Source of the DNA: a virus
Length of the DNA: 64,000 nt
Direction: 5' to 3' (one strand)
Virus record (IMG/VR): IMGVR_UViG_3300048687_000113
Span: 32,001-96,000 of that record
The notes below the pieces were generated by a model that saw nothing but the letters and a program-made list of their open reading frames with translations, searched no databases and had not been told where the DNA came from. The position numbers were made by a program, and so were the translations under genes. Below, one piece after another: positions 17,471 to 17,854 of this stretch (position 1 is its first letter; every line of letters begins with the position of its first letter).

Positions 17471-17854
17471 GGTCTCCCCGCGCGAGCGGGGGTGTACCGG
17501 TTGAAAGGCACGGCCGCGCTGTTGCCTGGATACTTTCCCCGCCGACGCGGGGGTGGTCCTTCTTTGTGTTTGATTGCAGGTAGGGATCTTGATTTGACCC
17601 CGCGCATGCGGGGATGGCTCGATTTCTAAGGGCATAGCACGATGTTCCCCGCGCAAGCGGGGATGGCCCCGCAGTTGAGAGAGCCAGTACTTGCTCCCCG
17701 CACACGCGGGGATGGTCCTGTAGTCAAGAGGGCTGGTATTTGCTCCCCGCGCACGCGGGGATGCTCCGCTTCGGCGGAGGTGGATCGAAACGGCATCTCG
17801 TGAGAGGTCCCTGAAGATCTCAGAAAACCGCTCCGCACACGCGGAGGTACGCGG
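17471..17854 (+). CRISPR. Orphan type I-E-like CRISPR mini-array, 8 variant 29-nt repeats, no cas genes in window
   Basis: Repeats at 17471, 17532, 17593, 17642, 17691, 17740, 17759 (overlapping the previous) and 17826; all keep a CCCCGC-N4-GCGGGG or CTCCGC-N4-GCGGAG stem and 8-nt handle; spacers 32,32,20,20,20,38 nt. Confidence 0.88.

Follow-up and report, generated by a model that had tools for sequence, protein, structure and literature searches.

Why would a phage carry an array of type I-E CRISPR-like repeats without any of the Cas proteins needed to use them? The question is posed by a cluster of eight hairpins in a stretch of 64,000 nucleotides, hereafter the window, which spans bases 32001-96000 of a 109,243-bp IMG/VR virus record; positions given here are those of the window. 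RNA anti-CRISPRs and viral crRNA-like regulators were described between 2023 and 2026, mostly from Proteobacteria. Our data point in the same direction for an actinobacterial phage. With a probability of roughly 60%, this cas-less array would encode crRNA-like RNAs that act via the type I-E Cas proteins of the host and thereby blunt CRISPR immunity.

The virus record is rated complete by CheckV, its termini share an overlap of about 19 nt, and its GC content is about 66%. It contains genes for a large terminase, a portal protein, a major head protein, a tail sheath and a tyrosine integrase. As the large terminase is 55% identical to those of the BRock group of Streptomyces phages, Streptomyces is the likely host group; host assignment by CRISPR spacers gave no match between the phage and any of the 2,082 spacers of the fetched host loci. 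The original prediction had noted the lack of cas genes for the 64 kb, and this holds for the complete 109-kb phage, which encodes no Cas6e, Cas7e or Cse1. The array lies within about 750 bp between two divergent genes, and the region 17340-17990 is non-coding, without a codon-phase GC3 signal. The features of the locus are as follows.

17012-17338, minus strand: left flanking gene (108 aa), divergent from the array, with a GC3 frame signal and a ribosome-binding site.
17425-17446, plus strand: promoter-like element TGTCAGT-N9-CATAGT, about 25 nt upstream of repeat 1.
17471-17499, plus strand: repeat 1, stem CCCCGC/GCGGGG, loop GCGA, handle GTGTACCG.
17500-17531, plus strand: spacer-like segment S1, 32 nt, of the family GTTGAnnnGCACGG..., which always follows handle GTGTACCG or GTGGCCCG.
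17532-17560, plus strand: repeat 2, loop CGAC, handle GTGGTCCT.
17561-17592, plus strand: spacer-like segment S2, 32 nt, AT-rich, no match found.
17593-17621, plus strand: repeat 3, loop GCAT, handle ATGGCTCG.
17622-17641, plus strand: spacer-like segment S3, 20 nt, of the family ..TCAGGGGCGTG.. / ..TAAGGGCATAG...
17642-17768, plus strand: tandem 49-nt units (Tandem Repeats Finder: period 49, 2.4 copies, 82% matches), made up of repeat 4 (17642-17670), S4 (17671-17690), repeat 5 (17691-17719), S5 (17720-17739) and repeat 6 (17740-17768).
17764-17787, plus strand: hairpin 7, CTCCGC-TTCG-GCGGAG, overlapping the handle of repeat 6, followed by handle GTGGATCG; it opens the terminal module, which mimics the second I-E repeat variant.
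17788-17825, plus strand: spacer-like segment S7, 38 nt, no match found.
17826-17854, plus strand: repeat 8, stem CTCCGC/GCGGAG, loop ACAC.
About 17855-17893, plus strand: terminator-like 17-bp hairpin followed by GTCTT, from the RNA fold of 17450-17900.
18068-18608, plus strand: right flanking small genes of no known family in Pfam or PHROG.

The core of the locus consists of eight perfect plus-strand hairpins with a 6-bp stem and a 4-nt loop, starting at 17476, 17537, 17598, 17647, 17696, 17745, 17764 and 17831. Six have the stem CCCCGC-N4-GCGGGG and two the stem CTCCGC-N4-GCGGAG, and their loops read, in order, GCGA, CGAC, GCAT, GCAA, ACAC, GCAC, TTCG and ACAC; the intact 6-bp stems, the CTCCGC/GCGGAG variant and all eight loops predicted at the outset were thus recovered exactly. 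The initial description as eight 29-nt repeats stands for the hairpins themselves and fails for hairpin 7, which begins only 19 nt after hairpin 6, uses the 3' handle of repeat 6 as its 5' flank and is therefore an overlapping module rather than an independent repeat. Read as 29-nt I-E repeats in the canonical direction of transcription, the units follow each other at 61, 61, 49, 49, 49, 19 and 67 nt, leaving spacer-like segments of 32, 32, 20, 20, 20 and 38 nt, which differ in steps of six. This clustering is far beyond chance, since the whole genome holds 54 perfect hairpins of this geometry with any sequence, eight of them within the 370 bp of the array, and since CCCCGC or CTCCGC hairpin stems are absent from the genome outside it. 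Judged from their sequences, units 4 to 6 arose by tandem duplication, with a period of 49, and have since diverged. No family was matched in Rfam and tRNA scans of the array region, nor did a nucleotide search against 50,697 phage records return a match. The global RNA fold of 17450-17900 is dominated by pairing between repeats, so that local structure is not readable from it.

The neighbourhood of the array offers few clues from protein families. The 108-aa protein on its left had no match in Pfam and PHROG, and relatives of it, sought in viral contigs, were not found, which leaves no syntenic loci to compare. Among 20 neighbouring small proteins searched against the same two databases, there was no known anti-CRISPR, Aca or other anti-defence family; matches were limited to a sigma-70 region 4-like HTH, an FN3 protein, a WDGH domain and DUF397. 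The HTH protein (90 aa, 15807-16079) is encoded near the array, and the DUF397 protein adjoins a 292-aa DNA-binding protein (phrog_9908) at 24370-25486. On the right, within 18068-18608, the GC3 signal tracks the ORF from 18068 to about 18290 and then the frame of the ORF from 18300, while the first frame remains open until 18517 despite this switch; a frameshift, overlapping genes or an assembly indel could account for the change near 18290-18300. Another non-coding array is found on the minus strand (16379-16544), 0.9 kb left of the main one and between two minus-strand genes. It comprises four hairpins AGCTCC-N13-GGAGCT at a spacing of about 43-50 nt, the last of which is altered on both sides to ACCTCC-N13-GGAGGT, and it matched no Rfam family.

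The original prediction had placed the array between a promoter-like sequence and a terminator, and both ends could be assigned, to the element at 17425-17446 and to the 17-bp hairpin at about 17855-17893. A scan for consensus sigma-70 promoters in the array region found none. The upstream element instead has TGTC[A/G]GT, a distance of about 9 nt and a -10 hexamer whose second base is A and whose sixth is T, as in RecA-NDp promoters; in all five Streptomyces genomes inspected, the region upstream of recA reads TTGTCAGTGGC-N6-TAGCGT, i.e. TGTCAGT-N9-TAGCGT, with the same 9-nt distance to the -10 and the same A2 and T6. By its motif, the array promoter is built like a RecA-NDp (PafBC-type) DNA-damage promoter and is predicted to be inducible, with a transcript start at about 17450-17455, roughly 18 nt ahead of repeat 1. 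PafBC activates the actinobacterial DNA-damage regulon through the RecA-NDp motif (PMC6789036, PMC8223512), and single-stranded DNA switches PafBC on (PMC11804915). The phage has only one other copy of this promoter type, TGTCAGT-N8-TAGCCT, on the minus strand at genome position 22262, about 9.7 kb ahead of the first base of the window.

The repeats of the array closely resemble those of its likely hosts. A type I-E Cse1 was present in 126 of 301 sampled Streptomyces genomes, a sample that included one unpublished genome (G135), on which no conclusion depends by itself. Of five Streptomyces genomes examined, three have a pair of I-E loci, one with CCCCGC/GCGGGG-stem arrays and the other with CTCCGC/GCGGAG-stem arrays, and the latter adjoin second cse1 genes in genomes G001, G002 and G003. 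The hairpins of the phage, with their 8-nt 3' handle [A/G]TGnnCCG, are of the same kind as those in arrays beside Streptomyces cse1. Four genomes (G242, G195, G252 and G209) have genuine array repeats that match the core of repeat 2 at 100% over 24-25 nt, and other loop variants of the phage array occur in natural arrays among the fetched host loci. At the level of sequence, the array thus mimics several natural repeat variants, including those of both co-resident I-E systems; the suggestion of the original prediction that several repeat variants are imitated is borne out by the two stem types and by repeat 2. Many Streptomyces Cse1 matches (e.g. in G293, G074, G271 and G219) lie within open frames of 1,500-1,800 aa, which suggests that Cas3-Cse1 fusion genes are common in this genus.

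The phage array does not stand alone. Two pattern scans of IMG/VR for such hairpin pairs 42-52 nt apart revealed 60 cas-less, short-spaced arrays in viral contigs, with 2 (n=28), 3 (15), 4 (7), 5 (5), 6 (2), 7 (2) or 8 (1) repeats, the array described here being the largest. Related arrays were also found in a Streptomyces prophage (L073), between the serine integrase and the small terminase. Further ones are carried by a Streptomyces plasmid (L037) and by a 157-kb contig from Streptomyces sp. MH60 (L087, identical to L010), whose genome has no Cse1. At least 10 of the 60 viral arrays have a RecA-NDp-like motif upstream of the first repeat by regular expression, often as TGTC[A/G]G[T/C]-N6-TGCCATAGT; by eye, it was seen in L008, L016, L017, L021, L025, L027 and L247. 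Inspection by eye also showed GC-rich hairpins after the last repeat in most related arrays. Conservation, on which the original prediction had wanted evidence, is therefore real among viral contigs and prophages and does not extend to the nearest cultured relatives (BRock, GiJojo, pSt2308, LuckySocke and Alone3), in which no such hairpin was found. As these BRock-group relatives lack it, the cassette is, on this comparison of genomes, an accessory module and not a lineage trait.

Within this family, spacers are common to unrelated contigs, and each spacer family is bound to one particular 8-nt handle. Handle GTGTACCG accompanies 32-33-nt spacers beginning GTTGA..GCACGG (S1 in the window; also in L010, L018 and L026), ATGGCCCN accompanies 18-21-nt spacers with an ..AGGGGC.. 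core (S3 in the window, a family common to seven other viral or prophage arrays), and GTGTTCCN accompanies a 14-nt GCTTGnTACTTG spacer. S5 resembles spacers of L224 and L219, and the terminal module, in which the overlapped CTCCGC hairpin is followed by GTGGATCG and then by [A/C]AACGGC, recurs in L010, L018 and L015. Spacer lengths in the family peak at 14, 20-21, 27, 32-33 and 38 nt; since the scans selected for spacers of 13-23 nt in at least one pair per array, only the other length classes are unbiased. Two further members are of interest for the way in which they are built. In IMGVR_UViG_2862725297_000001 (L238:1397-1560), a 49-nt unit of one repeat and one 20-nt spacer is present in three identical copies; these look like a very recent tandem amplification, which would show how such arrays grow. 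In IMGVR_UViG_2917736166_000001 (L239:11231-11620), seven repeats with alternating 20-nt and 32-nt spacers form two diverged copies of a 110-nt super-unit.

Do the spacers guide anything? The original prediction had proposed to look for their targets in the host, cas promoters, phages and plasmids, with a PAM check, and in this respect our searches came back empty: neither the phage itself nor 47 Streptomyces I-E loci, 301 Streptomyces genomes and 50,697 phage records yielded a target for the spacers searched in them. Within the phage, only chance-level seeds were seen. When 69 and then 122 viral spacers were compared with 47 Streptomyces I-E regions (up to 20 kb), seed matches did not exceed those of reversed-spacer controls. 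S3, searched at up to 3 mismatches in the 301 genomes, gave one match as compared to about 40 for its reversed control. A BLAST search of S1-repeat 2-S2 against the same genomes was dominated by genuine repeats and contained no spacer match of at least 24 nt among the matches listed, and protospacers for S1, S2 and S7 in the 50,697 phage records were at chance level only. In metagenomes, the S5-family core had at least 120 matches in unrelated contexts, which was uninformative. Two loci have an apparent S1-family match within cas3, which was dropped because it was at chance level. An 18-nt spacer common to L021, L025 and L027 matches 13 of 14 PAM-proximal nucleotides, with only position 6 differing, in the cas operons of two Streptomyces genomes (L158:7783 and L176:11866), on the strand opposite to the cas genes. 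For the scan as a whole, this match is no better than chance, but it may fall on the same gene in both genomes and might point to a real target.

A regulatory circuit of the host that the phage could hijack is likewise not evident in the sampled hosts, as only a single locus among the 47 Streptomyces I-E loci has a CreR-like short unit, with a spacer that is not related to those of the phage. CreR-type mini-arrays, i.e. two-repeat units with 20-21-nt spacers and a terminator, do occur in actinobacterial genomes; they differ from the phage array in sitting in or beside host CRISPR-cas loci and in having spacers outside the families of this phage. Three of them (L057, L058 and L103) have a partial seed match with an AAC or AAT PAM a few hundred bp away. 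The negative outcome of the target searches carries little weight, since CreR-type matches are partial (about 14 of 16) and thus at noise level in the scan of 47 I-E regions, since the searches covered sampled genomes only, and since the host of the phage may not be among them.

The handles and spacers of the family show a relationship of a different kind. In many related units, pairing is possible between the final 5-6 nt of the handle and nucleotides 6-12 of the spacer, with matched variants on the two sides (GCCCC/GGGGC, GCCCT/AGGGC, GCTCC/GGAGC, GGTCCC/GGGACC and GAGCCG/TGGTTC). Across 31 units, a spacer pairs better with its own handle than with permuted handles (P=0.004), although the three 20-nt units of the window pair weakly and are not outstanding in this test. 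In the S3 family, spacer positions 1-5 are the most variable and positions 6-12 the least, which is the reverse of what a conserved seed would show and agrees more readily with a hairpin whose loop varies. Together, pairing and variability keep alive those readings in which the RNAs act as decoys or sequester themselves.

Several explanations have to be weighed against these findings. The array could be the decaying remnant of a host CRISPR locus, or a set of palindromes unrelated to CRISPR (terminators, for example, or sites of recombination), in either case without a function as RNA. All of its repeats differ, a leader and cas genes are absent and the nearest cultured relatives are without it, as such a relic would have it. 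Decay, however, should hit stems as often as loops, yet eight of eight stems are perfect. The mean pairwise difference between repeats is 0.56 at non-stem positions and 0.07 at stem positions, and the one change seen in stems, C to T paired with G to A, is compensatory, occurring on both sides in both variant stems. Between units 4 and 5, 13 positions differ and none of these falls on the 12 stem positions (P=0.014). This conservation of stems amid diverged loops, handles and spacers argues that the hairpins are under selection and that the array is not decaying. The cassette moreover owns a promoter and a terminator and recurs in 60 viral contigs, so that we regard a functionless relic as highly improbable. 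We therefore side with the original prediction that the array is maintained, given its compensatory stems, the 56% difference elsewhere and the homologous cas-less arrays in viral contigs and prophages. It had named a cognate cas operon in the element, together with random decay of the array in relatives, as evidence to the contrary; the phage is cas-less, and related arrays recur in other viral contigs and prophages.

A selected array of hairpins might still be a sponge and nothing else. Its eight Cas6e hairpins of several variants would then be the active part and the spacers mere linkers: Cas6e would stay on its product, the transcript would soak up Cas6e and perhaps Cas5e and Cas7, and spacers partly folded onto the 5' handle would keep functional Cascade from forming. 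Solitary viral repeat decoys that are proposed to tie up Cas6 and Cas7, the Racrs, have been described by Camara-Wilpert et al. 2023 (PMC10651486) and are proven for type I-E, and the lack of a target for any spacer in the phage, I-E loci, Streptomyces genomes and phage records, along with the compensatory handle-spacer pairing of related arrays, would agree with such a role. Arbitrary linkers, on the other hand, would hardly change in 6-nt steps, which fit Cas7 units and which we count in favour of Cascade loading; nor would one expect spacer families tied to particular handles to be kept across unrelated contigs. The handle-spacer pairing is weak in the 20-nt units of the window itself, and published Racrs are solitary, linked repeats having been excluded from that search (PMC10651486). 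A pure sponge is, in our view, possible and rather doubtful. Alternatively, the spacers could be offensive or regulatory guides not aimed at CRISPR, which would silence or cut rival phages or plasmids, other defence genes of the host or genes of the phage. Virus-borne mini-arrays are used in virus-virus conflicts, and the two 32-nt guides and the 38-nt guide would be long enough for full R-loops. No protospacer was detected, though, in the phage records, the phage or the Streptomyces genomes searched, and spacers that are common to many viruses or are diverged duplicates of each other are unlike acquired immune memory. We consider guides of this kind improbable.

We thus return to crRNA-like RNAs that blunt host immunity as the preferred reading, which builds on the anatomy of the array, the selection on its stems, its family, its type of promoter, its mimicry of host repeats and the absence of cas genes. 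Transcription, processing, loading and an anti-CRISPR effect are what we infer from them. The actinobacterial DNA-damage promoter of the RecA-NDp/PafBC type would fire upon prophage induction, or in response to single-stranded DNA during infection or Cas3 attack, and would yield a single transcript that begins at roughly 17450, ends at 17893 and measures about 440 nt. Host Cas6e would cleave each conserved hairpin at its 3' base, releasing six or seven crRNA-like RNAs with 8-nt handles and guides of 32, 32, 20, 20, 20 and 38 nt. These RNAs could load into Cascade of both Streptomyces I-E variants, with CCCCGC and CTCCGC stems, and the resulting complexes would carry fewer or more Cas7 subunits. 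For Escherichia coli, I-E crRNAs with 14-20-nt spacers are known to assemble Cascades with fewer Cas7 subunits (PMC5159557). The altered complexes would vie with immune crRNAs for Cas6e, Cas5e and Cas7 and, if the short guides match host DNA, might also repress cas or other defence promoters without recruiting Cas3. Against this reading stand the lack of a target in the sequences searched, the single CreR-like unit among 47 host loci, the seed-unlike variability of the S3 family, the 2,082 host spacers of which none matches the phage, and the BRock-group relatives without such an array. An unlikely extension of this idea is a damage-triggered, self-inactivating decoy: the PafBC-type promoter would sense single-stranded DNA, crRNA look-alikes for two I-E systems would be made, and part of each guide would fold on its own 5' handle, so that the RNAs would trap Cas6e and Cas7 in dead-end particles. 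If true, this mechanism would be distinct from those of the Racrs and of the Cracr arrays alike.

The latter are the closest published counterparts. Cracr arrays are viral crRNA-like regulatory RNAs, as described by Liu et al. (bioRxiv 10.1101/2024.10.29.618823), and mini-arrays of prophages and viruses were described by Shmakov et al. (10.1101/2023.03.03.530964). The short pseudo-spacers of such arrays vie for Cas proteins and also direct the effector to promoters of cas or toxin genes, and the published survey lists candidates for Actinomycetota (10.1101/2024.10.29.618823; 10.1101/2023.03.03.530964). The array studied here shares with them a position on a mobile element, the phage, outside a cas locus, stacked units and degenerate repeats, type I-E being included. 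Its short pseudo-spacers lie between repeat-like sequences, of which there are more than the two required, and three of its six spacers measure 20 nt, close to the roughly 20-24 nt typical of published pseudo-spacers. The published I-E arrays of phages and prophages have two or three spacers of 21-24 nt, and one of them is Cas-processed and inhibitory (10.1101/2024.10.29.618823). Compared to these, the phage array is larger (eight hairpins and six spacers, against a published I-E maximum of three spacers). Its 20-nt spacers stand beside others of full length (32 nt) and one longer than that (38 nt), repeats of two I-E variants are imitated in a single predicted transcript, and further differences are the overlapped junction of two hairpins and the promoter of the DNA-damage type. 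The match that defines Cracr, which covers at least 9 PAM-proximal bp with a PAM and lies in the CreR/CreA spacer of a host or in the promoter of a cas or toxin gene, was not found for this array in the sampled genomes, in a scan that does not separate CreR-grade partial matches from noise.

The comparison with the two other relevant systems is similarly mixed. Like a Racr, the array is a viral repeat mimic with its own promoter and without cas genes, and I-E Racrs work (PMC10651486); it is, in contrast, not solitary, consisting of eight linked, regularly spaced units with Cas7-sized spacer steps. With a canonical type I-E array, it has in common the order of 5 nt, 6-bp stem, 4-nt loop, second arm and 8-nt handle, the matching orientation and, in its first two units, the 61-nt period. 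It lacks the near-identical repeats, the leader and the cas genes of such an array and, instead of unique spacers of 32-33 nt, has spacers that are shortened, duplicated (S4 and S5 being diverged copies) and common to different viruses. As no Cracr target match was found and the units are not solitary, we file the array under neither named family. From its sequence, it most probably belongs with the viral crRNA-like anti-CRISPR RNAs, a class described only recently. The idea of phage mini-arrays and repeat decoys is already published (10.1101/2024.10.29.618823; 10.1101/2023.03.03.530964; PMC10651486); the distinguishing points of the present array are its size, its mix of 20-, 32- and 38-nt guides, its dual-variant mimicry, its overlapped terminal module and its PafBC-type promoter.

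The array and its approximately 60 relatives suggest that actinophages widely use the same trick. The Streptomyces-type versions add to it up to eight units per predicted transcript, the mimicry of two co-resident I-E variants, guide lengths in Cas7 steps and a PafBC-type promoter, which would time expression to induction or nuclease attack. At about 470 bp, the locus is a compact test object for the shares that Cascade stoichiometry, Cas6e titration and guide-directed repression have in anti-CRISPR activity. It also bears on why the native I-E systems of Streptomyces are often silent or ineffective against phages.
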